A DNA stretch of 64,000 nt from Nibricoccus sp. (lineage in GTDB: Bacteria; Verrucomicrobiota; Verrucomicrobiia; Opitutales; Opitutaceae): NCBI GenBank assembly GCA_047602425.1, contig JASGHG010000001.1, forward strand, positions 4,896,001 to 4,960,000, read 5' to 3'. Positions 1 to 18,745 of the stretch are shown piece after piece. The position numbers were made by a program, and so were the translations under genes. The notes below the pieces were generated by a model that made no database searches, had not been told where the DNA came from, and saw only the letters and a list, made by a program, of their open reading frames with translations. The number at the start of each line of letters is the position of its first letter. Within the stretch, counting starts at the first letter, position 1.

Positions 1-76
1 AGATTTCACCCTTTGCGAAGCTCCGGCGGGTTGTTATGAACTGTCCTCCAACCTTTCGACTTAGTATTTTTTAACC

Positions 77-1734: not shown

Positions 1735-3401
1735 ATGCGCCCACTCGTCCAGCGTCTGCTTGCCATTGCACTTTTTCTGCTTGGCTTTGCAGTTCGTGCC
1801 GACGAAACAAAACCATCGATCAGCACTAACCCCATCATTCGTGGCGATTGGTCCGATCCGGCGCTGATTCGAGTAGGCGACGATTACTACACCTGCCGTT
1901 CCTCCTTCGGCTGGCAACCTGGCATTCCCATCGCGCATAGCCGCGATCTCATTCACTGGGAATATATCGGCCACGCTTTCACCACGCATCCCAAATTGAC
2001 CCCCGGCGATACTCGCGGTGGCATCTGGGGCGTCGACATGGGCTATAATCCCAACACCCGGCAATTTCTCATCTACGCCCCTTGCCGCGATCATTCGGTT
2101 TATGTTTTCAGCTCACCGCGTCCCGAAGGGCCGTATAAAATGACTTTCCTCGGCGACGACCTCGGCATCGATCCGGGATTCTTCGCCGATGACGACGGTA
2201 AACTCTACCTCGTGCTTAGTCACGGAACGATTCACGAACTTACACCCGACGGGCTCTCCATCAAACGCACGGCCAGCCGCATCGATCGTTCGCGGTATAA
2301 ACTTTTCGAGGGTCCGGCGATTTTTAAACGCAGCGACTGGTATTACCTCCTCTTTTCCGACGGCGGCACTCTCCCTCATGAACCAAGCACCATCTCCACA
2401 CTTCGCGCTCGCAGCCTTTCCGGCCCTTGGACGGAAGATCCCGGCAATCCCGTGATGTTTTCCACTGGGAAGGGTGCGCGATTTGAAGCACCCGCTCATG
2501 GCACGCTGCTTCAAACGCCGGATGGCCAGTGGTTCCTTGCTTATCACGCGCACGAAACCGCTTTCTACACACTGGCCGCCAGATGCTGATGCAGCCAGTC
2601 GAGTGGACCGACGATGGCTGGTGGCGACCAACCACCGGCAAGGTGCCAACCGATACGTTCGGCAGTCCGGCACTCCCTATCGGCAATTTTAAATTCGCCC
2701 AGTCCGACGAATTCGAGTCCGAAAAACTCGGCCTGCAATGGTTCTTCACCTGCCCGCCTGACTTTGGCGGCAAATCGTGGTCACTATCCGAAAAATCGGG
2801 CGTTCTCTGTCTTCGCACGCAGCCTGGCGATTTGACAATTCTCACTGCCTTGCCGGTTGTTTTCCAACAACGCGTCATCGATAAAACTTTCTCGTTCGAA
2901 ACGAAACTTACCTTTGCGGCGCATGAAGGACACGAAGCGGCCGGCTTGCATATGTTTCACGATCCACGGATGAACTTCTGGCTCGTCTCCACCGTTCGCG
3001 ATGGAAAAGCCGTCATCTCTGTTGGCAAAACCAATCTCGGCCAGCGTGCCGATCTCTGGTCAATGCCCAACCCGCACGGCGATACCGTCCACCTGAAGAT
3101 CGTGGTCAACGGCGAGGAGCGTGCCACGTTTTTCTTTGGACCCGACGGCGAACAATGGACGAAACTTGGCGATAGCATTTATTTCGGAGCCAGCGCCCAC
3201 CACCTGCGCGGCAACCTCAAAGGCGACCCCGACCTCGGCTGGGTCGGCACTTACAAGACACGCGCGCCCGATGGCGAACAAATCCGCGAGGGCAACGTCT
3301 GGACCGCCGCGACCTTCGGCGTCTTCGCCATACGCGATGGAGCCAAAGCCACGCGCAATGCCGATTTCGAGTATTTCCGCGTCACGCCCGCCGTGCCCTA
3401 A
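1735..3401 (+). pseudogene. GH43 glycoside hydrolase (beta-xylosidase/arabinofuranosidase-like) with C-terminal beta-sandwich, split by a 1-nt frameshift near 2574 (real or consensus error)
   Basis: ORF 1735-2589 has a signal peptide, NPIIRGDWSDPALIRVGDDYY, IDP, FEGP and HG motifs. ORF 2529-3401 continues GRQMLMQPVEW...DEFESEKLGLQW. Adding one G to ctggccgccag (2572-2582) restores FYTLGRQMLMQ. Confidence 0.85.
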
Positions 3402-3412
3402 CCTTTTCCTCC

Positions 3413-4666
3413 ATGGAACGTCTCACCGCCAAATACTATATCGAAACGCCACTCCCCGTCGCCAAGGCCGCCGCTTCGCTCGCCGGCGAACAATCTTCCG
3501 GTACATTTGTTGAGGTACCCGGAGAGACCGCCGAGTTGAAACAGCGTTTCGCCGCACGGGTCGAAAAAATCGTCGAGCTCGATTCCTCTCCAGTCCCTGC
3601 GATTCCCACCGGCCGCCCCGCTCCAGCCAACGCCGTTTATCGTCGTGCCGAGATCACGGTTTCCTGGTCCATCGAAAATTTCGGCTACAATCTACCGACG
3701 ATCGTTTCCACCATTCAGGGCAACCTTTACGAGCTCGCGCAGTTTTCCGGCCTCAAATTGATGGAGATCGAGGTGCCGCACTCCTTTGCCGAACGTTTTA
3801 GCGGACCTAAATTCGGCGTCGCTGGCTGCCGTCGACTCACGGGCGTCCAGGCCCGTCCGCTCATCGGCACCATCATCAAGCCCAGCATCGGCCTCACGGT
3901 CGCGCAGACGGCCGAACTCGTGAAAACGCTCGTGGAAGCCGGCATCGATTTTCTCAAAGACGATGAACTCATGGCCAACCCGCCGCATTCGCCGTTCGAC
4001 GAACGCGTTGATGCCATCATGCGGGTGATCAATGACCACGCCGAACGAACCGGAAGAAAGGCGATGTATGCGTTCAACATCAGCGACGAGGTCGATGCCA
4101 TGCAGCGCCATTACGACAAGATCGTTTCCACCGGCGGCACCTGTGCGATGGTTAGCCTCAACAGCGTTGGTCTTTCCGCCACCAAGAAAATCTGCGATCA
4201 CGGCCAACTCGCCATCCACGGCCACCGCAATGGTTGGGGCATGTTTAATCGTCACCCGCTACTCGGCATAGAGTTTCCTGCTTACCAAGTCCTCTGGCGT
4301 CTCGCCGGCATCGATCAACTCCACGTCAACGGTATCGCCAATAAATTCTGGGAATCCGACGACTCGGTCGTCCGCTCGATTGAAGCCTGTCGTCGTCCGC
4401 TCCTCGGCGGTATGTCAGTCTTGCCGGTTGTTTCCTCCGGACAATGGGGAGGCCAGGCACCCGAAACCTATCGCCGTACCCAAACGACTGATCTCCTGTA
4501 TATGGCCGGGGGCGGCATCATGGCCCACCCCGACGGCCCAGCGGCGGGTGTCCACGCGCTTCGCAAATGGTGGGACGCCGCCGTCGAAGGCCTCACGTTG
4601 GAACAAGCAGCCACAAAATACCCCGAGCTCGCAAAGTCGGTGGCAAAATTTGGAAAATCGAAATAG
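3413..4666 (+). CDS. RuBisCO-like protein (form IV RLP), OiaT/OiaX-type (3-oxo-isoapionate 4-phosphate transcarboxylase or decarboxylase)
   Basis: GEQSSGT, QGNL, GTIIKPSIGL, GIDFLKDDE, IHGHRNG, DQLHVNG, NKF, SSGQ, AGGGI; lies next to a DUF1537 kinase; no small subunit or PRK nearby. Confidence 0.9.
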   Translation: MERLTAKYYIETPLPVAKAAASLAGEQSSGTFVEVPGETAELKQRFAARVEKIVELDSSPVPAIPTGRPAPANAVYRRAEITVSWSIENFGYNLPTIVSTIQGNLYELAQFSGLKLMEIEVPHSFAERFSGPKFGVAGCRRLTGVQARPLIGTIIKPSIGLTVAQTAELVKTLVEAGIDFLKDDELMANPPHSPFDERVDAIMRVINDHAERTGRKAMYAFNISDEVDAMQRHYDKIVSTGGTCAMVSLNSVGLSATKKICDHGQLAIHGHRNGWGMFNRHPLLGIEFPAYQVLWRLAGIDQLHVNGIANKFWESDDSVVRSIEACRRPLLGGMSVLPVVSSGQWGGQAPETYRRTQTTDLLYMAGGGIMAHPDGPAAGVHALRKWWDAAVEGLTLEQAATKYPELAKSVAKFGKSK

Positions 4667-4743
4667 TCCACAAATAATACTGCGGGAATTTTGGGTATTA
4701 CACTTCGTTTCATTTCAACCAACTCTCTGCATTCGTTGACACC

Positions 4744-6070
4744 ATGACCGCAAAAAACGACCTCCTTCTTGCTTATTATGGCGACGACTTCACCGGTTCC
4801 ACGGATGCCTTGGAGTTTTTGACGAGAGCCGGCATCAGCACCACGCTGTTTCTCGATCCACCTGGTCCCGACAAGCTCAAACTCTACCCTGGCATCCAAG
4901 CGGTGGGAGTCGCCGGTTTTACGCGTTCACTCGCACCAGAAGCGATGGAAAAGGAACTGCGTCCCGCTTTCGAAGCGCTGCGAACACTGGGCGCACGGCA
5001 TGTGCACTACAAGGTCTGCTCGACTTTCGATTCGTCGCCCGAAGTCGGTAGCATTGGACGCGCGATCGATGTTGGTTCTTCGGTGTTCAGTGCGGCGTTT
5101 GTCCCCTTGCTCGTTGCTGCACCCGCGCTGGGGCGTCATTGCGTGTTTGGAAATCTTTTTGCGCGAATGGGCATAGGCAGTCAGGGCGAAATTTTCCGGC
5201 TCGACCGGCACCCCTCAATGAGTCGCCATCCAGTGACTCCGGCTCGACGAAAGCGACCTGCGTCTGCATCTGGCCAAACAAACAGCCAAGACCATTGCCC
5301 TTTTCGACATTCTCAAGCTCGGACTGCCCGTGCCGGAAGCGCGTAACGAACTTGAGAAATTGCTCAGCGGGAAACCCGGGATCGTTTTATTCGATGGATT
5401 GTATGCCGAGCAACTGACGATCGTCGGCGAGTTGATCGACGCTTACGCGAAACCTCAGCAGCCGCTCTTTTCGGTGGGTTCATCCGGCATCGAAATGGCC
5501 CTGGGCGCGCATTGGACCAAAACCATGAAGCTCACCTCGCCGTCGACCTGGCTACAACCGTTGTCCACCACCCCGCTTCTTGTCATCTCAGGCAGTTGCT
5601 CTCCAGTGACAGCGGCACAAATCGCTTTTGCCGGTAACACCGGGTTTGGGCACGTGCCACTTGACGTCGCGGCGCTTACGCGCGGTGAGAGCGTGGAAAC
5701 GACGATTCGCATCATTGTTTCCCATTTGCGAGCTGGACGGCATGTCGTAGCCTACACCAGTCGCGGCCCCGTCGATACGCCACTTTCTCGCGACGGCGCC
5801 CGTACCCTTGGGACGACGCTCGGCGTGATTGCCCAAGCTGCCATCGCTCAGGGCAAAGTCCGAAGGGTGATGTTTGCCGGAGGAGACACATCGAGTTACG
5901 CCGCGCGTTCGCTCGGAATTGACGCGATCGAAATGATCGCACCGCTTGCACCCGGTGCCCCCCTTTGTCGCGCGCATTCCTCCGATCCACTCATCGAGGG
6001 CCTGGCCGTCAATTTCAAAGGTGGGCAAGTTGGCGCCGAAGATTATTTCGCTTCAGTCGCATTCGCCTGA
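4744..6070 (+). pseudogene. Four-carbon acid-sugar kinase family (DUF1537, OiaK-like), split by a 1-nt insertion near 5244-5245 (real or consensus error)
   Basis: YYGDDFTGSTD, HYKVCSTFDSS and RHPVTP in ORF 4744-5346; SGSCS, AGGDTS and FKGGQVG in ORF 5330-6070. Removing one base from ggctcgac gives HPVTPADESDLRLHLAKQ in frame with the second ORF. Confidence 0.88.
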
Positions 6071-6080
6071 ACATATCCGC

Positions 6081-6241
6081 CGTAGAGAACACAGAGCTTT
6101 GACACAGAGTTCACAGAGTAAAACCAAACCTAACCTTTATCCTCTCTTCCTTCTACATCAATGACCATGAGTGAAAATGCGTGGTTAAGACTCCTTCTCC
6201 ATCCTCCGTGTTCTCTGTGTCCGAGCTCCGTGCCCTCTGTG
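6081..6241. repeat. Imperfect inverted-repeat element built of CAC(A/G)GAG units
   Basis: Left arm 6081-6118 and right arm 6204-6241 are reverse-complementary at 28 of 38 positions by my alignment. Confidence 0.8.
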
Positions 6242-6300
6242 ATCCACTCCGAATAATCCCGTCATCCTATATTCTTCGTTCTCCATCCTAAATTTTCCAC

Positions 6301-6957
6301 ATGCCCACCCTCGCTCTCATCCATACCTCCGCCACGCTCGTCCCGGTCTTTGCCGCGCTCACCAAGGAAAAGCTGCCTGGCGTCGCCACGTTCAACATTG
6401 TCGATGACAGTCTGGTCGGCGGCATTCGCAAAAAAGGTTCTCTCACCGCCGATATCGCTCGCCGCGTTGCCAGTTACATCCAATCTGCCGAAGCTAGCGG
6501 TGCCAATCATATCCTCGTGACCTGCTCCTCGATCGGCCCCGCGGTCGAAGCCGCCGCACCCTTCAGTGCAGTCCCTGTTCTTCGGGTCGATCAACCCATG
6601 ATCGACAAAGCCATTCAGGCCGGCACACGCATCGGCGTCATCGCGACGCTCGCTACCACACTTAATCCCACCACCGACCTCCTTCTGCGGCGTGCTGCTC
6701 TTGCCGGCAAAAAAATCGATCACACCGCCCGCCTCGTCGACGGCGCCTTCGAGGCACTTATGAGTGGCGACGCAGCCAAGCATGATAACCTCGTCGCATC
6801 CGCGCTCCGCGAACTCTCAACGCAGGTCGACGTCATCCTCCTCGCCCAAGCTTCAATGGCCCGCGTCGTCGATACGCTCGCCCCAGCCGACCGCCGGATC
6901 CCCATTTTTGCCAGTCCACCTATTGCGATCGAACACCTCGCCACCGTAATCAAATAA
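6301..6957 (+). CDS. Asp/Glu/hydantoin racemase family protein
   Basis: LALIHTS, LVTCSSIG, RVDQPM, IGVIAT, ILLAQASM; only one Cys in the protein. Confidence 0.8.
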   Translation: MPTLALIHTSATLVPVFAALTKEKLPGVATFNIVDDSLVGGIRKKGSLTADIARRVASYIQSAEASGANHILVTCSSIGPAVEAAAPFSAVPVLRVDQPMIDKAIQAGTRIGVIATLATTLNPTTDLLLRRAALAGKKIDHTARLVDGAFEALMSGDAAKHDNLVASALRELSTQVDVILLAQASMARVVDTLAPADRRIPIFASPPIAIEHLATVIK

Positions 6958-6969
6958 CCGTTCTGCCCC

Positions 6970-7066
6970 GTGAGCGTTAAAAGTTAAGCGTTGAACATCG
7001 AGCGTTCTGCATCGTTTCCCATCCTCGACTCGATGTTAAATGTTCGATGTTCAGCGTTGGATGTTT
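6970..7066. repeat. Two runs of degenerate heptamer repeats (TTnAnCG/TTnnATG), same family as the element inside glcF
   Basis: gtgagcg-ttaaaag-ttaagcg-ttgaaca-tcgagcg-ttc (6970-7007) and tcgatg-ttaaatg-ttcgatg-ttcagcg-ttggatg (7030-7063). Confidence 0.75.
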
Positions 7067-7085
7067 CCCCCTGTTCCCCCTTCCT

Positions 7086-8423
7086 ATGCCCCAACTCCGC
7101 AAACTCTGTCTTGGCCTCGCCGCCGTCACATTTCTCGTTCTCCTGGTCGGCCTCTTCTTCAACCAATCGAACTTTTGGCAACCAGCGGCTGTAATAGCAG
7201 CGGTTGGGCTTGCAATTGGTCTGGGTGCAGTGCCTTCGCTCAAAGGCTATCAATTCACCGCGTGGATCGCCGCCGCGGTTGTTGCCGCGATGATTTATCC
7301 CTCGGGATTCCAGCGCTGGGGCAGCTTCGATCTACGCAATAAATGGCTCATTCTTCTGGTTGTGCAGATGGTGATGTTCGGCATGGGCACGCAAATGAGC
7401 CTGCGTGATTTTGCCGGGATCGTTAAAACGCCGCGCGGCGTGCTGGTTGGTATCATCTGCCATTTCACTGTCATGCCTTTCGTCGGCCTTGCCCTCACTA
7501 AAATCTTCCACTTCGAACCCGAAATCGCCGCCGGCATCATTCTCATCGGTTCCTGTTCCAGCGGACTTGCCTCGAACGTCATGGCCTATATCGCCAAGTC
7601 GAACCTTGTGCTATCGGTTACCGTGACGGCCATCACCACCATGGTCGCTCCGCTCATGACTCCGCTGCTCATGAAGCTTCTCGCTGGCACCATGGTCGAA
7701 GTGAAGTTCTTCAACATGATGATGGAGATCATCAAAATCGTTCTCGTGCCAATCGGCGCTGCGCTGTTGCATGATTATCTCAAAACGGCCACGCTTCGCG
7801 GCCGCCGGGTAACGATGGTCATTGGTTTCTTGAGCGCCCTTTGGTTATTGGCTCTGCCACTTGGCAGTTGGTCTTGGTTCGCCGCCCACGTTGATCTTGA
7901 ACCGCTTCACTGGATTGGAGCTTTTGGATTTTTCCTCGCCGCCGTCGTATTCGGCCTCGTTTATCACACCGCCACACGATTGATCCCGAAACTCGATCAG
8001 TGGACGCCACTGGCTTCGATGTTCGGTATTGTCTATTTCACTACAGTAACAACCGCCGCAGGACGCGATAACCTCCTCAAAATCGGCGGACTGCTTTTCC
8101 TGGCCGCCGCCATTCACAATGCCGCCGGTTACTTTTTCGGCTACTGGCTGAGCCGCGGTGCCGGGCTCGACAAAAACTCCGCCCGCTCCGTCGCTTTCGA
8201 AGTCGGCCTGCAAAACGGCGGCATGGCCTCCGGCCTCGCCGGCGGCATGGGCAAACTCGCCACCGTCGGCCTCGCCGCCGCCATCTTCAGCCCGTGGATG
8301 AACATCTCCGGCTCCATCCTCGCGAACTATTGGCGCCGCAAGCCCGCCGACGACTCCACCACGCCACCATCGGACTCCTTGCCAAAACCCGTCGCCGAAC
8401 CGCATAGTTCTCCGGTTCGTTAA
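7086..8423 (+). CDS. Bile acid:sodium symporter (BASS/SLC10) family transporter
   Basis: MFGMG, GSCSSGLASNVMAY, FEVGLQNGGMA and many TM helices; ATG 7086 chosen over 7047, which lies in the repeat. Confidence 0.9.
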   Translation: MPQLRKLCLGLAAVTFLVLLVGLFFNQSNFWQPAAVIAAVGLAIGLGAVPSLKGYQFTAWIAAAVVAAMIYPSGFQRWGSFDLRNKWLILLVVQMVMFGMGTQMSLRDFAGIVKTPRGVLVGIICHFTVMPFVGLALTKIFHFEPEIAAGIILIGSCSSGLASNVMAYIAKSNLVLSVTVTAITTMVAPLMTPLLMKLLAGTMVEVKFFNMMMEIIKIVLVPIGAALLHDYLKTATLRGRRVTMVIGFLSALWLLALPLGSWSWFAAHVDLEPLHWIGAFGFFLAAVVFGLVYHTATRLIPKLDQWTPLASMFGIVYFTTVTTAAGRDNLLKIGGLLFLAAAIHNAAGYFFGYWLSRGAGLDKNSARSVAFEVGLQNGGMASGLAGGMGKLATVGLAAAIFSPWMNISGSILANYWRRKPADDSTTPPSDSLPKPVAEPHSSPVR

Positions 8424-8437
8424 TTCCAGCCGAACTC

Positions 8438-9622
8438 ATGCCTCGCGGGTTAAAAATCATTCTGGCGGTGTCCCTGCTAGCCAATCTCGGGCTTGCCGCT
8501 GTCTACTTTCATGCCCGCCACGCCCCATCTCTGGTTTCATCCCGCACGACAACCATCAATCACGCCCAAACAACCCCGCTCGCCTCCAACTGGCAGGCCC
8601 TCGCCGCCGCCACCGCCAGCGATGATCAAGCTTACGTTGCACGCCTCCGCGCCGAGGGTTTTCCGGCCAACGTTCTCCGTGCCTTTATGAAGGCAGAGCT
8701 TGCCGAGCGTTTTGCCGAACAGCGCCGCATCGCCAGAAAGGCCACTGGCAAGGACGACTACTGGCGCGACTACAATGCTCGATACCGCGCCAATCCCGAG
8801 GCCCAAGCCGCGCTCCGAGCTCTCGACCGTCAACAGGACGAACTCCTCCACCGGCTCCTCGGTCCCGATGCACTCAGCCCGCTTGAGACCGCCCGCCGCA
8901 TCCGTCGATTTGGCAATTTATCCGCCGATAAGCTCCACCAGCTTCAGCTCTTGAGTCAGGATTATAACGATATGTCCCAGCAAATCCGCCAAACAGCCGG
9001 CACCCTGCAACTGAAGGAGGATAAAGATGAAATCGAGTACCTTTACAAAGAACGCGATGCCGACATCGCCGCCCTCCTCGCCCCCGACGAACTCATTGCA
9101 TATCAGCTGCGCGAAAGCCCGACGGCTTTCAACCTCCAGTGGAAAATCCGCGCGTTCGATGCCACCGAGCAGGAGTATGAAACCCTCTACTCCCTCCAAA
9201 AATCCTACGAGGACCAAAACAAGACAGCCAATCCCGAGGAAAGGAAAAAGGCCGAGCAATTGCTGATACAAAGCATCGAGGCAGCCCTCGGCTCCGAACG
9301 CTACACCGAGTACAAGATCACCACCGACGGTTCCTTCGTTGGCGTTGTCGAGGTCACCAACAATCAGGGACTACCTCCTGCCATCGCCAAAGAAGCCGTC
9401 GCCTACAAACTCGACGTCATCCAGCGCTGGACAGCGATCAAACAGGACCCCGTGCTCACGCAGGCCGACCGCGATGCCAAAATCGCCGCGCTCGTCGCCG
9501 AAGCCAAAGCCGCGCTCAGTCAAAAACTCGGCCCCGCTGGCTTCACTGAATACTGCAAAAACAACAACATCAGCTCGTGGATCGACAACGTTGCGAAATC
9601 CACCGGCCCGTCCAAGCCATGA
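8438..9622 (+). CDS. Hypothetical exported/membrane-anchored alpha-helical protein, paralog 1
   Basis: 394 aa ORF with N-terminal hydrophobic anchor (SLLANLGL); shares co-linear motifs with the next gene. Confidence 0.75.
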   Translation: MPRGLKIILAVSLLANLGLAAVYFHARHAPSLVSSRTTTINHAQTTPLASNWQALAAATASDDQAYVARLRAEGFPANVLRAFMKAELAERFAEQRRIARKATGKDDYWRDYNARYRANPEAQAALRALDRQQDELLHRLLGPDALSPLETARRIRRFGNLSADKLHQLQLLSQDYNDMSQQIRQTAGTLQLKEDKDEIEYLYKERDADIAALLAPDELIAYQLRESPTAFNLQWKIRAFDATEQEYETLYSLQKSYEDQNKTANPEERKKAEQLLIQSIEAALGSERYTEYKITTDGSFVGVVEVTNNQGLPPAIAKEAVAYKLDVIQRWTAIKQDPVLTQADRDAKIAALVAEAKAALSQKLGPAGFTEYCKNNNISSWIDNVAKSTGPSKP

Positions 9623-10857
9623 AAGCGATCGCCTACAGCCTCCTTTGTGCCTCGCTTGGACTTAATATCCTATTCGGCTCCGTCATCCTTCGCAGAAATT
9701 CGTCCTCGACTACAACTACCACACAGCACCAATCTTCACCTCAGCCTTTCCGCTTGGAGCCCCCTCCTTCGGCATCCCCAATCTCATCCACACGTCCCCT
9801 CTGGCAGCTCCTCGGCTCCGACGACCTCCCTCAACTCGTTGCAAATCTGCGAGTAGCGGGCCTCCCACCCCGCAAGATCGCATACATCGTTCTACATTTG
9901 CTTCGGGAAAAATACGCAGCACTCCAGGACGAGAATGACGTTGGCAAAGAACCTCCGCCCTACTGGCGCAATTCCGACATCATCTCTGACAATAGTTATA
10001 ACAATCGCCAAAAGCGTGCCCGCCGCGAAGACCTGTGGCAGCAAAATCGCACCGAGGAAGCCCAGCTTCTCGGCGATGATCGTTGGCTCGCGGAGGGAAT
10101 TCCTCTCATCGATCACATCCGCCAGGCCAATGGGAATATTCTTTCCAATAAAAAACTCTCCGCGCTCGCTGAGCTTGAATCCGAATACTCAATATTGACC
10201 CGCCCGCTGGATCTCAACTCCAGCGACCCAGCCACCCGCGAGAAATTAAAACTGCTCGAAAAGGAGTTCAAGAAGGACGTCGCTCTCATCCTGACTCCTG
10301 AGGAAATGCTGGAGCGCGATCTCCGCTACAGCAACGCCGCCGGCCTGCTTCAGAACCGTTGCAACTATTTTGTCGCCACCGAGGCAGAATACCGCGCACT
10401 TTTCCCAATCTACCAGCAAATCGACCAAGCCGCGCCATACTCCGACTGGGACCAGGTCGACGAAAAAACAAAGTCCGCCCGCAAGGAAGCCGAAACCCGC
10501 GCCCAGGCCCAAATCGAGGCGATCCTCGGCCCGGCTCGCTACGCTGAATTCAAGCAAGCCAATGACGAAACGGCACGAAAGGAAAACCAGCTCGTTACCC
10601 GCCTTGGCCTTCCATTGGCATCCGCTGCTCAGCTCGTCTCGATCAAAGCCGATATTTTGTCCCGTGCCGAACAAGTGCGCAAGGACAACGCAAACAATCC
10701 AGCTGAACGCTCCTCCCGCCTTGCCGCACTTCGCACCGAGGCCGAATCCCGGATCTCCGCCACTCTCGGAGCCGCTGGCCTCACCGCCTACCGGGAACAT
10801 GCCGGCGGATGGTTAAAAATTGCGCAAGAATCCGGTCCGAAAAATACTTCTCCATGA
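9619..10857 (+). CDS. Hypothetical exported/membrane-anchored alpha-helical protein, paralog 2
   Basis: ATGA overlap with the upstream gene; SLGLNIL anchor; motifs LRVAGLP, YWR, FVATEAEY, LGPARYAEF. Confidence 0.75.
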   Translation: MKAIAYSLLCASLGLNILFGSVILRRNSSSTTTTTQHQSSPQPFRLEPPPSASPISSTRPLWQLLGSDDLPQLVANLRVAGLPPRKIAYIVLHLLREKYAALQDENDVGKEPPPYWRNSDIISDNSYNNRQKRARREDLWQQNRTEEAQLLGDDRWLAEGIPLIDHIRQANGNILSNKKLSALAELESEYSILTRPLDLNSSDPATREKLKLLEKEFKKDVALILTPEEMLERDLRYSNAAGLLQNRCNYFVATEAEYRALFPIYQQIDQAAPYSDWDQVDEKTKSARKEAETRAQAQIEAILGPARYAEFKQANDETARKENQLVTRLGLPLASAAQLVSIKADILSRAEQVRKDNANNPAERSSRLAALRTEAESRISATLGAAGLTAYREHAGGWLKIAQESGPKNTSP

Positions 10858-12233
10858 TCGACGAACTCAAACGCCTGCTGGGCGAAAAAAACGTCCTCAC
10901 TTCCGCCGAGGATATCATCCCCTACGGCTTCGATGGCACCGCGACGTTGAAACAGCGTCCCCTCGCCGTCGTTTTTCCCGCCAACACCGCCGAAGTTGTC
11001 GCCGTCGTCAAACTCGCCCGTTCACACAAAACGCCCATCGTTACGCGCGGCAACGGCACTGGCCTCAGCGGCGGCAGCGTGCCTGTCGCCGGCGGCATCG
11101 TTCTTTGCCTCATACGACTGGATAAGGTTATCGAACTCGACCTCGCCAATCTCACGCTCACCGCCGAAGCCGGTGTCGTGACCCAAAAAATCTACGAAAC
11201 CGCCGAGGCCGCGGGACTTTTTTATCCGCCCGATCCCGGCTCGATGAAAATCAGTACGATCGGTGGCAACGTCGCTGAAAACTCCGGCGGCCTGCGCGGC
11301 CTGAAATACGGCGTCACCCGCGACTACGTAATGGGTCTTGAAGTGGTTCTGGCCGACGGTACGGTTTGCTGGCTCGGCAGCAAATGCGTGAAAGACGTCG
11401 CCGGCTACAACCTCCGCGACCTCTTCATCGGCAGCGAAGGCACGCTTGGCATCATCACAAAAGTTCTACTCAAGCTCCTACCCAAACCCGCCGCGCGCCA
11501 GACCCTGCTCGCCACCTTCGCCGCGATGGACACCGCCGCTGCCACCGTCTCCGCTATCATCGCGGCGAAAATCATTCCATGCACGCTGGAGTTTCTCGAC
11601 CGCCGCACGCTCCAATGCGTCGAAGATTTCGCCAAAGTTGGACTTCCACGTGATGCTGAAGCTGTGCTCCTCATTGAGACAGACGGACACCCCGCCGCAG
11701 TCACCGAGGAAGCCGCCAAGATCGAGGAAATCCTCCACACCCACGGTGCCAAGACCGTCGCCCGTGCCGCCAACGCTGAGGAAGCCACGCGCCTCGCCAC
11801 CGCCCGCCGCAGCGCTTTTTCGGCTCTCGCGCGGCTACGCCCTACGACGATCCTCGAAGACATCACCGTGCCGCGCAGCAAACTCGCCGAGATGATCCGT
11901 CTCGTCAGCGAAGTCGCAACCAAGCACAACCTCCAGATCGCCACCTTCGGCCACTTCGGCGACGGAAACCTACACCCCACGATCCTCACCGACGAACGCG
12001 ACACCGCCGAAATGCACCGCGTCGAAGAGGCCTTGAAGGATATCTTCAACCATGCCCTCGCCCTCGGCGGCACCATCACCGGCGAACACGGCGTCGGCCT
12101 CGCGAAAAAAGCGTTCCTCAAGCAACAACTCGGTGACAGCAGCTACGCGTTGCTTCAACAAATCAAACGCACGCTCGATCCGGCGAACCTGCTAAATCCT
12201 GGGAAGATTTTAACCACAGATCACACGGATTAA
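10854..12233 (+). CDS. glcD: FAD-linked oxidase, glycolate oxidase subunit GlcD-like
   Basis: RGNGTGLSGG, YPPDPGS, TIGGNVAENSGG, KYGVTRDYV, GSEGTLG, GHFGDGNLHP, TGEHGVG, LNPGK; ATGA overlap at 10854. Confidence 0.9.
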   Translation: MIDELKRLLGEKNVLTSAEDIIPYGFDGTATLKQRPLAVVFPANTAEVVAVVKLARSHKTPIVTRGNGTGLSGGSVPVAGGIVLCLIRLDKVIELDLANLTLTAEAGVVTQKIYETAEAAGLFYPPDPGSMKISTIGGNVAENSGGLRGLKYGVTRDYVMGLEVVLADGTVCWLGSKCVKDVAGYNLRDLFIGSEGTLGIITKVLLKLLPKPAARQTLLATFAAMDTAAATVSAIIAAKIIPCTLEFLDRRTLQCVEDFAKVGLPRDAEAVLLIETDGHPAAVTEEAAKIEEILHTHGAKTVARAANAEEATRLATARRSAFSALARLRPTTILEDITVPRSKLAEMIRLVSEVATKHNLQIATFGHFGDGNLHPTILTDERDTAEMHRVEEALKDIFNHALALGGTITGEHGVGLAKKAFLKQQLGDSSYALLQQIKRTLDPANLLNPGKILTTDHTD

Positions 12234-12399
12234 CACGGATAAATCCTCATACTTCCTTGGCTGAAACTCTCTTCATAAAACAACTCTGCCGAATACAAGA
12301 ACCTCCTTCCAACAGCCGGATCTTCGTTTCCTTCGTTACCTTCTGTAAAATGGTTTCAGGTTCCGAATCCGTGCCCATCCGTAAAATCCGTGGTTAAAA
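12208..12399. repeat. Inverted-repeat element (AACCACAGAT/CACGGAT units) spanning the glcD-glcF junction, with a nested 9-mer-period run at 12321-12350
   Basis: Left arm ttttaaccacagatcacacggattaacacggat (12208-12240) and right arm atccgtgcccatccgtaaaatccgtggttaaaa (12367-12399) match at 26 of 33 positions. Confidence 0.85.
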
Positions 12400-13796
12400 A
12401 TTCTCTTCAGACACTCGATTATTCAGTGCTTCAGCAATGCATGCACTGCGGCATGTGTCTGCCCAGTTGCCCGACCTTTGCCGAGACCGGACGCGACCGA
12501 AATTCCCCGCGCGGTCGCATCGCCCTTATGCGCGCCGTGGCGGACGGCGAACTGCCTTTCAGCCGCAATTTCGCAGAAGAGATGAGCTACTGCCTTGGTT
12601 GCCTCGCGTGCACCACAGCCTGCCCTGCCGGTGTCGACTACGCTCATCTGCTGGAGACCGCCCGTTCCGAAGCCGAACAACGCGGCCTGCTCCAAACTCC
12701 GACACGCCGCTTCATCCGCTGGTTCACGATGCGTTTCCTGTTTGTGCACCCGCGCGCCATGCGCACCGTCGGCCGTCTGCTTTGGTTGTACCAAACTCTC
12801 GGGCTGCAAACGCTGGCACGCAGGCTGAAACTCACCGCATTGCTCCCACGCCGAATCCGCGAACTCGAACCTGCCACGCCAGAAATTCGCCCTCCGTTTT
12901 CTGACGCGCTCATCGCCAAAGTCGAACCTTCCCGTAGAGCTAAACGTTATCGCGTCGCCCTGCTCACTGGCTGTGTATCCGACTTGATCCTGGCCGAAGT
13001 CAACCGTGCCACCGTCGACGTGCTGATCGAAAACGGCTGCGAGGTCTTCACACCACGCAACCAACACTGCTGCGGCTCGCTCCACGAGCATAACGGTGAC
13101 CTCGGCACCGCCCGCCGCCTCGCCCGCATTCAGCTCGACACAATTGATCCATTTTCCGTTGACGCGATCATCAGCAACGCCGGCGGCTGCGGCTCGCATC
13201 TCAAGCATTACGACCGGCTCCTCGCCGACGATCCGGCTTACGCCGCTCGCGCCCTTGAGTGGACACGCAAGACCCGCGATATCTCGGAATGGCTCGTCGA
13301 AATTGGCTTCCGGAAACCGTCAGAAGAACGCTCCACACTCAACATTCAACGCTCAACGCTCAATGAGACGAGCGGCTCCCCCTTGAGCGTTCAGCGTTCA
13401 ACGTTAAACATTGAACGTTCCGCGCCGAAGGCGCGGCCGCTTCTCACTTATCACGAGTCCTGCCATCTCGCTCACGGACAGAAAATCTCCTCCGCTCCCC
13501 GCGCCATCTTGCGTTCGCTTCCCGACTACGAGTTTCGCGAACTCGCCGAAGCCACGTGGTGCTGCGGCAGCGCCGGGATCTATAACATCACGCAACCGGC
13601 AACCGCCACGTGGCTCCAGCAACGCAAAGTCGGCCACCTCCGCGCGACGAATGCAACGGTCGTTGCCATCGCCAACCCAGGCTGCCACCTGCAAATCTTG
13701 AACGGCCTCCGCGCCGCCGGCCTAGACGCTGTCCGCGTGGTACATCCCATCGTGCTCCTCGCAGAAGCCTACAAAGATAAAGCGCCTCTCGACTAA
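12390..13796 (+). CDS. glcF: Glycolate oxidase iron-sulfur subunit GlcF-like (two 4Fe-4S motifs plus two CCG domains)
   Basis: CMHCGMCLPSCP, SPRGRI, CLGCLACTTACP, HCCGS, YHESCHL, WCCGSAG, NPGC. Confidence 0.9.
   Translation: MVKNSLQTLDYSVLQQCMHCGMCLPSCPTFAETGRDRNSPRGRIALMRAVADGELPFSRNFAEEMSYCLGCLACTTACPAGVDYAHLLETARSEAEQRGLLQTPTRRFIRWFTMRFLFVHPRAMRTVGRLLWLYQTLGLQTLARRLKLTALLPRRIRELEPATPEIRPPFSDALIAKVEPSRRAKRYRVALLTGCVSDLILAEVNRATVDVLIENGCEVFTPRNQHCCGSLHEHNGDLGTARRLARIQLDTIDPFSVDAIISNAGGCGSHLKHYDRLLADDPAYAARALEWTRKTRDISEWLVEIGFRKPSEERSTLNIQRSTLNETSGSPLSVQRSTLNIERSAPKARPLLTYHESCHLAHGQKISSAPRAILRSLPDYEFRELAEATWCCGSAGIYNITQPATATWLQQRKVGHLRATNATVVAIANPGCHLQILNGLRAAGLDAVRVVHPIVLLAEAYKDKAPLD
13326..13420. 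repeat. Heptamer-based palindromic element inside the glcF reading frame
   Basis: Left arm gaacgct-ccacact-caacatt-caacgct-caacgct-caa, 19-nt loop, right arm ttgagcg-ttcagcg-ttcaacg-ttaaaca-ttgaacg-ttc; translates as ERSTLNIQRSTLNETSGSPLSVQRSTLNIERS. Confidence 0.85.
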
Positions 13797-13915: not shown

Positions 13916-14467
13916 ATGCCGCCGGATGACTTTTCACGATGGATCGCACCCGTCCAATCACGCATGATCAATTGCACCTGGAGGATCGTACGCTGTGCGG
14001 CCGATACAGACGACGTCATTCAGGAAGTATTACTACATGTTTTCCGGCGATTCGACGAAGTGCGCGCCCATCCGAATCCCACGGCGCTACTACTTCGCAT
14101 TTGCACTCAAAAATCGCTCGATCATTTGCGTCGCGGAAAAGCGCGTGGCGGACCGCCTGGTACACTCTCGCCCAATATTTCGGAAAAAACACCTTCGCCT
14201 CATCAGCAACTGGCCAATGCAGAGCTTCGCGATCAACTTATCGCGTTTATCGGTCAATTGCCGCCGCGCGAAGCCGAAGCCATCACCTTATTTGCCCTCG
14301 AGGATCTCGGGTATCCAGACGTGGCGGAAGCAATGAATTGCAGCGAGCCGACAGTGCGGGTTCTCGTCAGCCGTGCGCGCGAAAGATTCCGCACGGAGTT
14401 TAAAAACAAGCGTTCAATCACGAGCGAGCGCGATCTGACCTCTCCGTTAAAATTTCAAAAGGATTGA
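13916..14467 (+). CDS. ECF RNA polymerase sigma-70 factor
   Basis: Region 2 (DTDDVIQEVLL...QKSLDHLRR) and region 4 (LPPREAEAITL...YPDVAEAMNCSEPTVRVLVSRARERF). Confidence 0.92.
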   Translation: MPPDDFSRWIAPVQSRMINCTWRIVRCAADTDDVIQEVLLHVFRRFDEVRAHPNPTALLLRICTQKSLDHLRRGKARGGPPGTLSPNISEKTPSPHQQLANAELRDQLIAFIGQLPPREAEAITLFALEDLGYPDVAEAMNCSEPTVRVLVSRARERFRTEFKNKRSITSERDLTSPLKFQKD

Positions 14468-14470
14468 GCT

Positions 14471-16324
14471 ATGGACAACGATGATCTCGACAACCATTTA
14501 AAGGCCCATCTCCGCGACGATGCCCCATCTGAAGTGCATGTCCAGGCCTCATTGCACTTTGGTGACTTTGCCGCGTCATTGTCAAAACAACGCGCCACCG
14601 CCAAAAATCCGCGCGGCCCCCTCCTTTGGTTTTGGGCCGGGGCGGGATTGTCCGGCGGCATCGCTCTCGTCGCTTTAGCCGTCGCTTTACTTTTCTCGCC
14701 AGCACCATCCTGGGCGCAGGTCGCCGAACGTTTCCGCAGTCTGAAGTTTTTTAACGCAACCGTCTTCTACACGGAAAATAGCGGCCAAGCACCGGAAAAA
14801 ATCGATCTTTGGGTTGCGCAGGATCGACGTATGCGGGCTCATTATAGGGGCCTTATTTTCTTCGGCGCCGAAGGCCGTTTGACCAAGGTTATCTCCGCCG
14901 AGAAAGGCCTGGAAATCCCGCTCGACGAATTGCAGTACCAACTGCGTGGCCGCGATGGCATGCCTGCCCTTCCCTTGGTGCGTGGCATCGCTCGTTTTAG
15001 CGAAGAGCCTAACTTTTCAATCGATAAGCTGCTTGGCTTGCTCAGTGGCAAACGCGAACAACTTCAGCCCACACCCAATACCGACGCAGTCACAAGCAAC
15101 GACCTGCAGGTTTTCGATTTCACCGACAAAAACAATCCCGAATGGGTGCGCTTGTGGGCGCTCAAAAAAAGCGAACTTCCCGTTCGCCTGCGCATCTGGG
15201 ATCCATGCGACGGAGGTCAAACTGATCTCGTCTTCGACTATGCCACCCAAATGCCCGAGGTCGCCTTCGCACCCGAGCGCGTGCAGATGGCTTTGCAGGA
15301 AAAACAAGGCGCGACCAATCGTCTTTATGCCATGTTGCCCGATTCCGGCGGCCAGCCGATTACCCCTGAACACTTGTTCGCTATTCGCGGTTACCACCTG
15401 CCAGAAATTGACACAGTTGGACGCACGCCGGAAGGGGTGGTCTGGGTGCTAAGTCGCAATGTCGAGAATCGCCGTCCGGATGGTGAACGTATCTACGGCT
15501 GGAACCAACTGAATGATAATCTTGGGCAAACCTACACCCACCGTGTCATCGGCTGGCTGACCGAAAATAACACACTGCTGGAATATTTTGTACCAGAAAA
15601 TCTGGATTCGAGTTTTCATTTGCCCGCCAGCTACACCCTCATCTGCCAAGACTCCCCATCCAGTTCCTCCTCGATCGATCAAATATCCGCCAAAATAATC
15701 GGTTCGGTCGCCGTCGGCGCCTGGCAGGAAACCGCTTTCATTCCCGATTTGGTTCGTGCGAAACAAAATGAAATCGACGGCCGCACCAACTGGCAATTGA
15801 TGGCCATGGATGACGCCGCCGGAAAACAGGATTGGAAAAAGTTCGAGGAGATTGCTACGTCGATTCCCGGCAATCCTGAAACCGATCTCGTCGCATTGAC
15901 ACGCGACGTTAAGCGGGCGCACAAACTTTTCTATACCCGCGAGCAAAAGGCCATGGCTGCACTTTGTGCCCGTCTGTACCCACTGGTTTCTGCCGGCGTA
16001 AAACAAGGCCAACCCTATTATAGCAATATCGTGCGGTGGCACGTCGCCAGTCTTCTACGCGAGGGACAACGCGTCGAGGCCCGCGTATTGGCTAATCGTC
16101 ACGCCACCGAAGCGCTCGCACGCAGTAGGATCGAAGGCCCCCAATTCGTCGTCAATTTGATGTTCGATCTTCGACTTGCTGGCCTTTCCGAGGCTGAAAC
16201 GGAGTCCTTTTTCGACCGCACCATTATCAGTCAACAATCGGTCCGCCGTCAGTTGGACAAAACGAGAATTTTTCTCGACCCCACTGCAGAGTTACCCACA
16301 GGCAGACCCTCCGTCGCACTTTAA
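14471..16324 (+). CDS. Putative membrane-spanning anti-sigma factor with large extracytoplasmic domain
   Basis: Starts 3 nt after the ECF gene; short cytoplasmic N-terminus, one TM helix (LLWFWAGAGLSGGIALVALAVALLF), then a long domain; function inferred from position. Confidence 0.6.
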   Translation: MDNDDLDNHLKAHLRDDAPSEVHVQASLHFGDFAASLSKQRATAKNPRGPLLWFWAGAGLSGGIALVALAVALLFSPAPSWAQVAERFRSLKFFNATVFYTENSGQAPEKIDLWVAQDRRMRAHYRGLIFFGAEGRLTKVISAEKGLEIPLDELQYQLRGRDGMPALPLVRGIARFSEEPNFSIDKLLGLLSGKREQLQPTPNTDAVTSNDLQVFDFTDKNNPEWVRLWALKKSELPVRLRIWDPCDGGQTDLVFDYATQMPEVAFAPERVQMALQEKQGATNRLYAMLPDSGGQPITPEHLFAIRGYHLPEIDTVGRTPEGVVWVLSRNVENRRPDGERIYGWNQLNDNLGQTYTHRVIGWLTENNTLLEYFVPENLDSSFHLPASYTLICQDSPSSSSSIDQISAKIIGSVAVGAWQETAFIPDLVRAKQNEIDGRTNWQLMAMDDAAGKQDWKKFEEIATSIPGNPETDLVALTRDVKRAHKLFYTREQKAMAALCARLYPLVSAGVKQGQPYYSNIVRWHVASLLREGQRVEARVLANRHATEALARSRIEGPQFVVNLMFDLRLAGLSEAETESFFDRTIISQQSVRRQLDKTRIFLDPTAELPTGRPSVAL

Positions 16325-16336
16325 ATTCTCAACGCC

Positions 16337-18745
16337 ATGAAAAGAATATGTACCTTATTTCTGGTTATAGTCGCTGGCTTACGAAATCCATGTGCTAGGG
16401 CGGTTGATAATACATCGCCGCCAGCCTCGGGAAACACAAAAATCACCGAGCGGTTCCTCGATATCTTCCAGCCCTTCCGGACTACAACTGCCGCACTTTC
16501 CCCCGACGGTAAATGTCTGGCTTACTCCGTGCGTGAAGGAGAAAAAACCTGGGTTGTCACGGTCGATCTGGCAAATCCGAGCGTGCTAAAAGGGGCGGTG
16601 GTTGTCGGTACGGACGATGCCGCCAATGCCATGTTTTCCGAAAACGATGAAAAGATACCGCTTTTAGTTCTGTGGTTGGGTTGGGTCACATCCAACCGCC
16701 TCGTGATCATGACGAACCAGGCCGCTATTTACACGCAGGCTGCACTTTGGCGTACACTCGAGGCCCCTGAACCATCCTCACTTTCCGATACAGACTGGCT
16801 GAACACTCAGTTTGCGCAGGATAGGCTCGCCAGACTGGACTCTGCCGCGGGATGGACGAGCACATCAGGCACGATCTTTTCCATGGACGCCGATGGAAAA
16901 AATGGCCGCATGTTGCTCAACGGCTACTCCTTGAGCCTCGAGATTCCCAATGCCGATCCTTTTTTCGGCCGATCCACCCCCACGGAACAACCATATGCCA
17001 TGCCACAAGCTCCGATGGGGCTGGCGCACGTTGTCGCACCCAACATTTTCGACTATAGCTCCGACAATCCGGAATGCCTGATCATCCGGGCTCAAGTGAA
17101 TGGTCGAGGAAATTATTTCTGCGAACTCAATGCTATATCCGGCAAAGTCGAGCTGCTAAATAACGACTATGCCAGCAGGGGGTACCTCCCGCTATACGAT
17201 CGACAGAGACATTTACGGATCGGGCTGGAGGCCGAACCCTCGTCCTATCCGATATCGTATTTGTTGCATAAGGAAGGGTTCACCTTGGGTCATTGGAAAA
17301 AGCTCGATGACGCGGTGCAAGTTCCGGGTAAGACTCGCTTTTCACTTTCACCAGAAAACTTCTTCACAGAACGGTCATTCCCCCTTGGTTTCGACGAGAA
17401 TGCATCGATTCTTTTTTATGCCTCCAATGTCGGCCGCGATACCTATGGAATATTCGGCTATGATTTAAAAACCAACCAGCCAACTGACTTCGCCATTGAA
17501 AGCCCAGGAATCGATCTCGTGGCGGCGCCTTCTTCCAACTATGCAAACGCCAATCTTGTTTTCGACCGCTTCTCACGCAGCCTTGTAGGTGTTCGGTACC
17601 TGGATACCTCTCGGCAAACCGCCATTTGGATAAAGCCTGAGCTGACAAGGGCACAAAAAGCCCTGGAGGCTCGCTTCCCCTTGCACAATGTCGAAATCGT
17701 CGAATGGGACAAAACTTTCAGCGAGATTCTTGCGCTTATACACAATGCAGCGGATGCCGGCTCATTCATTATTTATAACCCTGAAAAAAATTCCGCCGTC
17801 GATCTCGTCCGGCGCAGCCCGCTCATGGAAACACGCCCGACGCACCGGGTGATGCCCTTTTCACTCAACGCTCCCGAGGGCAATAAAATCAATGGCTTGT
17901 TGACCTTTCCTGTCAGCGGACGTTTCGACAAGGTTCCGATCGTCGTGCGTTGCCCCATTCAGCCATGGCTGCGGACTTCGCTGACGTTTCAGCCCGAAAC
18001 AATCGCGCTTGCCGACATGGGATTTGCCGTCCTTCAAATTGACAGTCGCGGCGCCTGGGGTTTTGGCGTTAAGCGACGTGAGTCGATTAAAGATGGTTAT
18101 GAAAAAACAATTGTTGCTGACGCAGTCTACGCCATCGAGAACCTCTCCAAAACCTATCGCATCAATCCTCAGCGTGTTGCCTTGCTTGGCGAAGGTTATG
18201 GCGGTTATGTTGCTCTGCGCGCACTGCAGCTGGAACCAGACCGTTTCCGTTGCGCAGTCACCATCAATGCCCCGCTCGACCTATATTCATGGATTGAAAA
18301 TGACCGATGGACACGCCGCTCAAAGGCGGTCTATCTCACCCGCGCCTATTACGGCCCCAGGGACTTGTTGAAGGAATCTGCACTCGACCGTCATCCCGAA
18401 AAAATCACCAAACCTGTCTGCCTGCTCGCTTGGCCTGGGCCGGAGGGCGCGCCTCGCACGCCGACTTACCTTGAGACACGTCAGTTTGCCTATGCACTTC
18501 GCAGGCAAGGCACGCCCGTCGAACTCAACGAACTCGACAAACGTTTCACGGGCAGCGTCGACAATATAGAAGGCGCCCCAAGTGCCAAATCAACGATGCT
18601 TGAGCTAGACCGCGAATTCACTCAACGCCTGCCGCATGCCCAAGCTGCTGCGTATCGACATATCGAATACTTCCTCAACGCGTACATCTATGACTATCAG
18701 GTGAAGCTTGGACCGCTCAAAGAACTCCCTGATCCATCAAATTGA
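16337..18745 (+). CDS. S9/prolyl-oligopeptidase-family homolog with degenerate catalytic motifs
   Basis: Signal peptide, ALSPDGK propeller start, LADMGFAVLQIDSRGAWGFG, INPQRVALLGEGYGGY (Ser replaced by Gly), FRCAV. Confidence 0.8.
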   Translation: MKRICTLFLVIVAGLRNPCARAVDNTSPPASGNTKITERFLDIFQPFRTTTAALSPDGKCLAYSVREGEKTWVVTVDLANPSVLKGAVVVGTDDAANAMFSENDEKIPLLVLWLGWVTSNRLVIMTNQAAIYTQAALWRTLEAPEPSSLSDTDWLNTQFAQDRLARLDSAAGWTSTSGTIFSMDADGKNGRMLLNGYSLSLEIPNADPFFGRSTPTEQPYAMPQAPMGLAHVVAPNIFDYSSDNPECLIIRAQVNGRGNYFCELNAISGKVELLNNDYASRGYLPLYDRQRHLRIGLEAEPSSYPISYLLHKEGFTLGHWKKLDDAVQVPGKTRFSLSPENFFTERSFPLGFDENASILFYASNVGRDTYGIFGYDLKTNQPTDFAIESPGIDLVAAPSSNYANANLVFDRFSRSLVGVRYLDTSRQTAIWIKPELTRAQKALEARFPLHNVEIVEWDKTFSEILALIHNAADAGSFIIYNPEKNSAVDLVRRSPLMETRPTHRVMPFSLNAPEGNKINGLLTFPVSGRFDKVPIVVRCPIQPWLRTSLTFQPETIALADMGFAVLQIDSRGAWGFGVKRRESIKDGYEKTIVADAVYAIENLSKTYRINPQRVALLGEGYGGYVALRALQLEPDRFRCAVTINAPLDLYSWIENDRWTRRSKAVYLTRAYYGPRDLLKESALDRHPEKITKPVCLLAWPGPEGAPRTPTYLETRQFAYALRRQGTPVELNELDKRFTGSVDNIEGAPSAKSTMLELDREFTQRLPHAQAAAYRHIEYFLNAYIYDYQVKLGPLKELPDPSN

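Follow-up and report, generated by a model that had tools for sequence, protein, structure and literature searches.

A conserved gene cassette around a form IV RuBisCO-like protein is predicted to catabolise L-aceric acid from rhamnogalacturonan II

The described systems that come closest to the one analysed here are the oxidative routes of D-apionate catabolism, in which ApnO and the kinase OiaK act ahead of a RuBisCO-like protein (RLP) that is either a decarboxylase, OiaX, or a transcarboxylase/hydrolase, OiaT (PMC13753588 and PMC6302742); according to the former source, all three oxidative apiose routes run via ApnO. An RLP also cleaves a branched plant-sugar derivative in the D-hamamelose route of Ochrobactrum anthropi (Kim et al. 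2018, as cited in PMC8914248 and PMC10176493), although that enzyme is described as an oxygenase and no matching gene set was seen here. Aceric acid, given as 3-C-carboxy-5-deoxy-L-xylose in PMC3355719, is part of the aceric acid-rhamnose-apiose (AceA-Rha-Api) trisaccharide of rhamnogalacturonan II (RG-II), which is released by BT1003 (bioRxiv 10.64898/2026.03.13.711244), a GH127 aceric acid hydrolase of Bacteroides thetaiotaomicron (PMC5698469). BT1003 only releases the sugar, and no downstream catabolic route was found in the literature searched. Here we analyse a window of 64,000 nucleotides (positions 4896001-4960000 of contig C1) from the genome of Nibricoccus sp. (G000; one contig of 5.16 Mb, 99.97% complete), which encodes a form IV RLP together with a DUF1537 kinase, a protein with the Asp/Glu racemase fold and one conserved cysteine, and a BASS-family transporter. 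In RG-II loci, these four genes, hereafter the cassette, probably serve to catabolise L-aceric acid that is released by the product of an upstream GH127 gene, as judged from family assignments and gene neighbourhoods.

The four genes are a conserved cassette. Among the best 80 of 583 RLP loci from GTDB (67-79% identity; Verrucomicrobiota, Bacteroidota and one locus labelled Phycisphaerae), the RLP and the kinase are present in all 80, the racemase-fold protein in 77 and the BASS transporter in 73. We further compared 70 genomes that carry the cassette (33 of the host family and 37 others) with 80 of the 113 genomes of the family that lack the RLP. An orthologue of the racemase-fold protein (at least 340 bits) is encoded in 30 of the 33 family cassette genomes and in none of the 80 RLP-negative ones; in the three cassette genomes without it, the contig stops no more than about 1 kb downstream of the RLP.

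The substrate is suggested by the GH127 protein encoded upstream. Its best match in PDB, and a far better one than the next (696 against 369 bits), is 5mqo, which we take to be BT1003, and it scores 918 bits against the curated model NF049879 (cut-off, 950). An aceric-acid-type GH127, called at NF049879 scores of at least 690 bits with a gap down to 604 or less, is present in 69 of the 70 cassette genomes (32/33 in the family, 37/37 elsewhere), compared with 7 of the 80 RLP-negative family genomes. All 32 Bacteroidota cassette genomes encode orthologues over 950, clearly separated from other GH127 proteins. In an even sample of 301 Bacteroidota, each of the six genomes with an RLP of the same clade (two of them already in our set) has the hydrolase over cut-off, as do ten genomes altogether. 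In 24 of 32 family genomes, the hydrolase gene shares a contig with the RLP and precedes it by at most 25 kb; in 18 of the 80 loci it is the directly preceding gene, less than 400 bp away. Outside the cassette, no real gene is a more frequent neighbour (29/80 loci).

The Nibricoccus cassette is preceded, on the same strand, by a fucose-isomerase-like gene, a split transketolase, an FGGY kinase, a DUF2291 ABC transporter, two Sde182-like genes, GH127, a major facilitator superfamily (MFS) transporter and GH78, and then by the esterase and GH43 genes of the window. The block from the fucose-isomerase-like gene to the DUF2291 transporter is presumably the transketolase route for apiose; DUF2291 transporters are also found in ApnO loci. 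The AceA-Rha-Api trisaccharide matches the GH127, GH78 and apiose genes of this locus, and the cassette is found amid RG-II genes of various kinds (GH106, GH78, GH2, Gfo/Idh/MocA, CoA-transferase). The Sde182-like pair (nucleoside-hydrolase-like, PF07632; L112:9064-11807, that is, G000:4887064-4889807), located between the apiose-type transporter and GH127 and near the latter in several relatives, could be an unrecognised RG-II glycosidase family, possibly apiosidases; G000 has only a weak match to the apiosidase family PF13204. A separate module, found upstream of the cassette or of glcD in L010, L011, L017, L018, L031, L036, L045, L047, L058, L070 and L120, consists of two solute-binding-type proteins, a Gfo/Idh/MocA oxidoreductase, one or two family III CoA-transferases and a RhaT-/FucP-type carrier, and may be an undescribed route for a rare sugar, for example, 2-O-methyl sugars.

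In the proposed pathway, the BASS transporter would import the anionic sugar, and the racemase-fold protein, using Cys75 as its only base, would isomerise the aldose via an enediol to 3-C-carboxy-5-deoxy-L-xylulose. This ketose, HOCH2-CO-C(OH)(COO-)-CH(OH)-CH3, is 3-oxo-isoapionate plus a methyl group. Its formation takes an isomerase and no oxidation, so that ApnO would not be needed; the racemase-fold protein, as the sole cassette enzyme without an assigned step, fits the requirement. The kinase would then phosphorylate C1, and the RLP would decarboxylate the product to an enediolate, re-add CO2 at C2 and hydrolyse the intermediate as OiaT does, yielding 3-phosphoglycerate and L-lactate. Given aceric acid as the substrate, we lean towards this cleavage, the other outcome being protonation to 5-deoxypentulose 1-phosphate, because the RLP keeps E60, N123, H327 and S379 and no aldolase is conserved nearby. 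The lactate would be oxidised by LutABC, encoded elsewhere in the genome, or by GlcD-GlcF. LUD-domain lactate-utilisation genes are indeed present elsewhere in G000, whereas malate synthase (PF01274) has no match in this genome and glyoxylate carboligase (TIGR01504) none over cut-off, so lactate suits the locus better than glycolate, the product assumed in an earlier note on this DNA, which now appears doubtful. In principle, an apiose-type isomerase could perform the isomerisation; no such isomerase was found in 9 of the 32 Bacteroidota that keep the cassette. The complete scheme, namely, an undescribed aceric acid pathway with a cofactor-free, single-cysteine aldose-ketose isomerase of the racemase fold, an RLP that moves the branch carboxyl to C2 and hydrolyses the product to 3-phosphoglycerate and L-lactate, and GlcD-GlcF recruited twice for lactate, is a tentative proposal that we consider doubtful when taken in all its parts.

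The assignment of the RLP is based on models, residues and a tree. PF00016 and PF02788 match over cut-off, the KDDE carbamate/Mg motif occupies positions 182-185, the set of carboxylase residues is incomplete, and the scores are under the form I-III cut-offs, as is the case for form IV RLPs. Motifs and alignment place E26, N104, K156, H271/R272, H304, K311 and S341 at E60, N123, K175, H294/R295, H327, K334 and S379 of RuBisCO, with K182/D184/E185 retained and S158 at K177, so that the residues listed in the earlier note are present; the RuBisCO numbering is anchored on an alignment with form III. The score against the OiaX model NF042437 is 506.9 bits, under the cut-off of 700, whereas three annotated OiaX proteins score 759-791 and form a separate branch (100/100). 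A methionine-salvage (MtnW) placement, which the earlier note had named as evidence against its reading, is not borne out either, with 130.3 bits against TIGR03332 (cut-off 513.6) and 172.8 against NF007095 (cut-off 409). A tree was built from 49 RLPs, one of them a fetched protein and the others selected from the loci examined; it lacks an outgroup as well as a characterised OiaT. The clade, represented by 31 of its 97 sequences, falls on one branch (100/99), apart from ten ApnO-linked and three OiaX sequences; identity of the clade is 50-56% to the ApnO-linked RLPs and 47-48% to OiaX. By alignment and tree, then, the RLP forms a clade of its own, distinct from both. E60, N123, H327 and S379 are kept in this RLP and in 96-97 of the 97 clade sequences, and are lost in all three OiaX sequences. 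We predict an OiaT-like transcarboxylase/hydrolase, where 'OiaT-like' refers to residues common to uncharacterised ApnO-linked RLPs that are not OiaX. The kinase has both domains of DUF1537 kinases, SBD_N and NBD_C (PF07005 and PF17042), in two frames here and in one frame in G053, a genome of the same genus; intact orthologues score 421-423 bits (422.6 in G053) against the OiaK equivalog NF042436, under its cut-off of 700.

In the racemase-fold protein, C75 is invariant, and the site of the second cysteine is occupied by an equally invariant LAQASM motif across 73 aligned sequences, so the protein lacks the cysteine pair of Asp/Glu racemases. A PDB search with the single sequence gave no match, and the single-sequence fold was poor (pLDDT 54) and was replaced by an alignment-based model (pLDDT 95) with the Asp/Glu racemase fold (TM about 0.7), arylmalonate decarboxylase being among the fold matches. 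With the Asp/Glu/hydantoin racemase superfamily, which includes glutamate, aspartate and allantoin racemases, arylmalonate decarboxylase and maleate isomerase, the protein shares the fold and the first catalytic cysteine; it differs in being only 13-20% identical to its members, in the replaced second cysteine and in its location in a sugar-acid operon. One invariant cysteine without a second fits a single-base enediol mechanism, and we regard the protein as a candidate aldose-ketose isomerase. We rejected a role as lactate racemase, the known chemistry of which is different. The orthologue is unmatched in four ApnO-linked loci of the family and is not annotated in ApnO-linked plasmid loci.

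Several observations weigh against an aceric acid pathway of this form. The upstream GH127 falls slightly short of the curated cut-off, and the hydrolase occurs without the cassette in 4 of the 10 Bacteroidota and in seven family genomes. Many of the GH127-adjacent loci come from related Pedobacter and are not independent. All 40 Bacteroidota checked for the apiosidase family PF13204, including 36 with the cassette, encode it, so that genome-level co-occurrence reflects RG-II use in general; with this control, aceric acid is singled out only by adjacency, by the lack of ApnO and by the chemistry (in the cases compared, though, the apiosidase is tens of kilobases distant, at 43 kb in G167 and 51 kb in G175). 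The tree contains no characterised OiaT. No aldose-ketose isomerase is known to have the Asp/Glu racemase fold, and homologues in rhizobia that are 45-48% identical to the racemase-fold protein sit among FAD oxidase and amino-acid transport genes, so that a link to sugars does not hold for the wider subfamily. The predicted product is L-lactate, but the solved structures nearest to GlcD belong to enzymes for D-lactate and glycolate. Finally, the kinase gene is frameshifted here, as discussed below. In some genomes, an aceric-acid-type GH127 was found with neither a clade RLP nor a racemase-fold orthologue (G020, G013, G102, G017, G073, G105 and G106 in the family; G208, G225, G237 and G400), for which excretion of the sugar, a different route or incomplete genomes may account.

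The earlier note had read the locus as a D-apionate operon in which 3-oxo-isoapionate is handled by OiaK and OiaT and the resulting glycolate is cleared by GlcDF. Several features suggest such a route: a DUF1537 kinase and a form IV RLP lie side by side, their best family matches are OiaK and OiaX, the RLP residues are compatible with OiaT and shared with ApnO-linked non-OiaX RLPs, and the predicted substrate would also be a phosphorylated 3-oxo-2-C-branched acid. In addition, apiosidases co-occur with the cassette, glcDF is linked to it in G000, G053 and G074, a genome of the same family, and the cassette Bacteroidota without an apiose isomerase match might need another apiose route. Oxidative D-apionate routes with ApnO, OiaK and OiaX or OiaT were reportedly described by Carter et al. 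in 2018. This route requires ApnO to supply 3-oxo-isoapionate, and neither PF16896, which we take to be ApnO, nor two ApnO-type protein queries (best PDB match, 5t57) matched anywhere in G000, while positive controls were found; an ApnL-type query also gave no match, so neither enzyme that the earlier note had proposed to search for was detected. PF16896 is present in 7 of the 70 cassette genomes (7/33 in the family, 0/37 elsewhere, with positive controls found), never on the contig of the cassette, and ApnO, ApnL and ApsD queries matched none of the 80 RLP loci. In four family genomes, PF16896 is located within 3 kb of a second type of RLP (51-55% identity), which belongs to the ApnO-linked group; in G074, the two types occur together in one genome but at different loci. 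The cassette contains no conserved dehydrogenase, a separate transketolase operon is at hand, and neither malate synthase nor glyoxylate carboligase was found; where the D-apionate routes have ApnO, ApnL and ApsD, this locus has the racemase-fold protein and the BASS transporter, together with a separate RLP clade, an aceric-acid-type GH127 and a predicted co-product, lactate. An apionate route is unlikely, and in the specific form with GlcDF clearing glycolate very much so. From the earlier interpretation, what stands is the OiaK-like kinase, an RLP with residues that fit OiaT-like chemistry and the caveat that the substrate could be another branched sugar acid, whereas apionate is not supported and glycolate is doubtful; the RLP phylogeny for which it called places the protein in its own clade. 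Elsewhere, on an Azospirillum plasmid (L110:9444-12564), a VOC-family gene that may encode an alternative isomerase directly precedes the genes of an RLP and a kinase; a TRAP transporter accompanies them, and ApnO is not seen in the vicinity. On a glycan-degrading Croceibacterium plasmid, a divergent GH127-like gene accompanies an RLP-kinase pair (L159:6175-10528 and L169:8010-9937), the RLP of which groups with the ApnO-linked ones, and a homologue of the racemase-fold protein (47%) lies about 33 kb away; we rejected this GH127-like protein as an aceric acid hydrolase, given no NF049879 match at 1e-30.

Under another explanation, which accepts aceric acid as the substrate, the RLP is only a decarboxylase, its product, 5-deoxy-L-pentulose 1-phosphate, is split by a class II aldolase into dihydroxyacetone phosphate and acetaldehyde, and glcDF is a bystander. 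The clade lies beside OiaX on the midpoint-rooted tree (98/81, on a very short branch) and shares Q302 and W313 with it, class II aldolase genes exist elsewhere in G000, and glcDF is not conserved. However, no aldolase appears among the main neighbour clusters, and an OtnC query gave no match in the 80 loci at 1e-15; residues that OiaX has lost are kept almost throughout the clade; and genes for FAD/Fe-S hydroxy-acid dehydrogenases are found by or near the RLP in 4 of the 80 loci, with glcDF in two more lineages. We consider this variant rather unlikely. The cassette could also serve another sugar acid from RG-II or other plant material, for example, one derived from Dha, Kdo or hamamelose, with the racemase-fold protein acting as an epimerase or as a decarboxylase similar to arylmalonate decarboxylase, which is among its fold matches. 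The many kinds of RG-II genes around the cassette would agree with this, and an RLP route from hamamelose to 3-phosphoglycerate and glycolate is cited in PMC8914248. Nevertheless, the kinase and the RLP are nearest to enzymes whose substrate is a 2-C-branched 3-oxo acid, a kind of compound that lies a single step away from aceric acid, and no non-cassette gene is found beside them more often than GH127. There is also no conserved dehydrogenase, which we take the hamamelose route to need. We regard a different sugar acid as improbable.

The kinase gene of this strain is interrupted by one extra base near position 5244, compared with the intact orthologue in G053, and the GH43 gene has lost one base near 2573, again relative to G053. 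A comparison of 92 genes with relatives showed three to be frameshifted, those for the kinase, GH43 and the MFS transporter, all in this locus and within 10 kb; decay of the locus and an assembly error confined to it would explain this pattern equally well. The one public DNA run that we consulted (a share of 0.05) yields scattered contigs that do not usefully cover the frameshift sites. The assembly is a single contig, each of the defects comes down to one base, and no other gene is disrupted, with 80-93% identity to the same-genus orthologues; we take the kinase frameshift to be probably a consensus error rather than a real lesion, and a decaying, non-functional locus to be the less probable explanation. 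Were the lesion real, the route would be broken in this strain and not in the cassette family, so that decay bears on the strain only and not on the function of the cassette.

The two genes that end the series, glcD and glcF, do not belong to the cassette as a fixed part, a possibility that we rejected: orthologues of neither are present in any of the 80 RLP loci, and the pair is found downstream of the RLP in 2 of 19 family regions, those of G053 and G074, in the latter abutting the BASS gene. Weak glcD matches in four of the 80 loci are fused FAD/Fe-S dehydrogenases, two of which directly adjoin the RLP. At the genome level, glcD is encoded in 19 of 32 genomes with the RLP and 9 of 17 without it (one 39% paralogue left out). 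The glcDF pair is, accordingly, not co-conserved with the RLP, and the removal of glycolate within the locus, as inferred in the earlier note, is doubtful. In a quick tree, the glcD genes of the G053 and G074 lineages are not sisters, so that the association apparently arose twice and a modest link to the cassette is possible. Elsewhere, glcD neighbourhoods vary, and glcF is always paired with a glcD orthologue with no glcE between them; in L125, L127 and L134, the pair belongs to a conserved cluster with about eight other genes, including one for a short-chain dehydrogenase/reductase (SDR), which suggests a general clean-up of 2-hydroxy acids. An FAD subunit combined with an Fe-S/CCG subunit is common to GlcDEF glycolate oxidase and the LctD/Dld-type dehydrogenases. 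Compared with GlcDEF, this locus has no glcE beside glcD-glcF (no genome-wide search for glcE was made), both subunits score under the equivalog cut-offs, and neither malate synthase nor glyoxylate carboligase was found; the set is not that of a three-subunit glycolate oxidase. The substrate may be glycolate or lactate. The nearest PDB matches of GlcD are the LctD structure 7qh2 (333 bits) and the glycolate oxidase 9qgz (330 bits). FAD dehydrogenases of this kind usually prefer D-acids. We describe GlcD-GlcF as a mobile two-gene dehydrogenase that joined the locus in two lineages; given the equal distance to lactate and glycolate enzymes and this preference, we lean against its serving the cassette, while holding this possible.

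The features of the locus, called from open reading frames and family scans of the window, are listed in Table 1. The predicted operon begins well upstream of the RLP, which follows GH43 after 11 bp and is continuous with the esterase, GH78, MFS and GH127 genes. Promoter and terminator scans gave chance-level results (3 against 3.2 and 12 against 12.7). The gene inventory of the earlier note, with all eight genes from the RLP to glcF co-oriented, holds, although it overlooked the kinase frameshift, the upstream start of the operon, the absence of an adjacent glcE and the paralogy of the two hypothetical proteins. The carboxylesterase is possibly a de-acetylase.

Table 1. Features of the candidate aceric acid locus; coordinates refer to the window unless prefixed with G000
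Feature	Coordinates	Strand	Remarks
GH78 alpha-L-rhamnosidase, 3' end	1..64	+	gene G000:4893296-4896064; last gene before the window, same operon as GH127
Aceric-acid-type GH127	G000:4889814-4891889	same as RLP	about 7.5 kb upstream of RLP
Carboxylesterase PF00135	77..1732	+	from family scan; 0/80 loci, hence not conserved with the cassette
GH43 glycosidase	1735..3401	+	two frames, 1735-2589 and 2529-3401
Form IV RLP	3413..4666	+	PF00016 and PF02788
DUF1537 acid-sugar kinase, OiaK-like	4744..6070	+	two frames, 4744-5346 and 5330-6070; PF07005 and PF17042
Asp/Glu-racemase-fold protein PF01177	6301..6957	+	invariant C75 and LAQASM motif; candidate aldose-ketose isomerase
BASS/SBF sodium-anion symporter	7047..8423	+	start may be ATG near 7088; predicted acid-sugar importer; 73/80 loci
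Hypothetical protein 1	8438..9622	+	hydrophobic N-terminus; Verrucomicrobiota tandem paralogue family; probable passenger
Hypothetical protein 2	9619..10857	+	paralogue of hypothetical protein 1; ATGA overlaps with both neighbours
GlcD/LctD-type FAD 2-hydroxy-acid dehydrogenase subunit	10854..12233	+	TIGR00387, 514 bits (cut-off 567.9)
GlcF-like 4Fe-4S/CCG subunit	12390..13796	+	NF008434, 235.6 bits (cut-off 333)

The two hypothetical proteins are mutual paralogues with hydrophobic N-termini, no family match and look-alikes in Verrucomicrobiota only. Their genes occur in 7 of the 80 loci, in tandem arrays of variable length and position; they are probably not pathway enzymes, and we rejected them as such. 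Members of this family are helical proteins of about 400 amino acids without a Pfam match; their arrays comprise two to six copies, which are about 30% identical. Further paralogues are located at G000:1844272-1856854 and 2712267-2713259, with arrays in L010, L018, L087, L090 and L096, and S9 peptidase genes often follow. An S9 peptidase is also encoded after glcF, where the region 13916-18745 comprises an ECF sigma factor, a 617-aa protein without a family match that is a possible anti-sigma factor, and the peptidase, in the same order as in G053.

No aceric acid catabolic pathway appears among the matches listed from the full-text literature, a scope that leaves most subscription papers outside. 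An RLP of Pedobacter heparinus may have been assayed as OiaT; C6Y121 bears a generic name only. Aceric acid is a signature RG-II sugar of vascular plant walls, the releasing enzyme of which is known, while no consuming route was found in the literature searched. The cassette offers four named candidate genes for this role in culturable hosts, namely, Pedobacter heparinus (strain DSM 2366 has intact orthologues, the RLP being ACU04948.1), Flavobacterium and Rufibacter. If the prediction is true, the carboxyl-transfer chemistry of the RuBisCO superfamily would gain a substrate and a co-product, and the racemase fold would gain a new reaction. It would also correct an easy mis-annotation of a large clade of RLPs as apionate enzymes.

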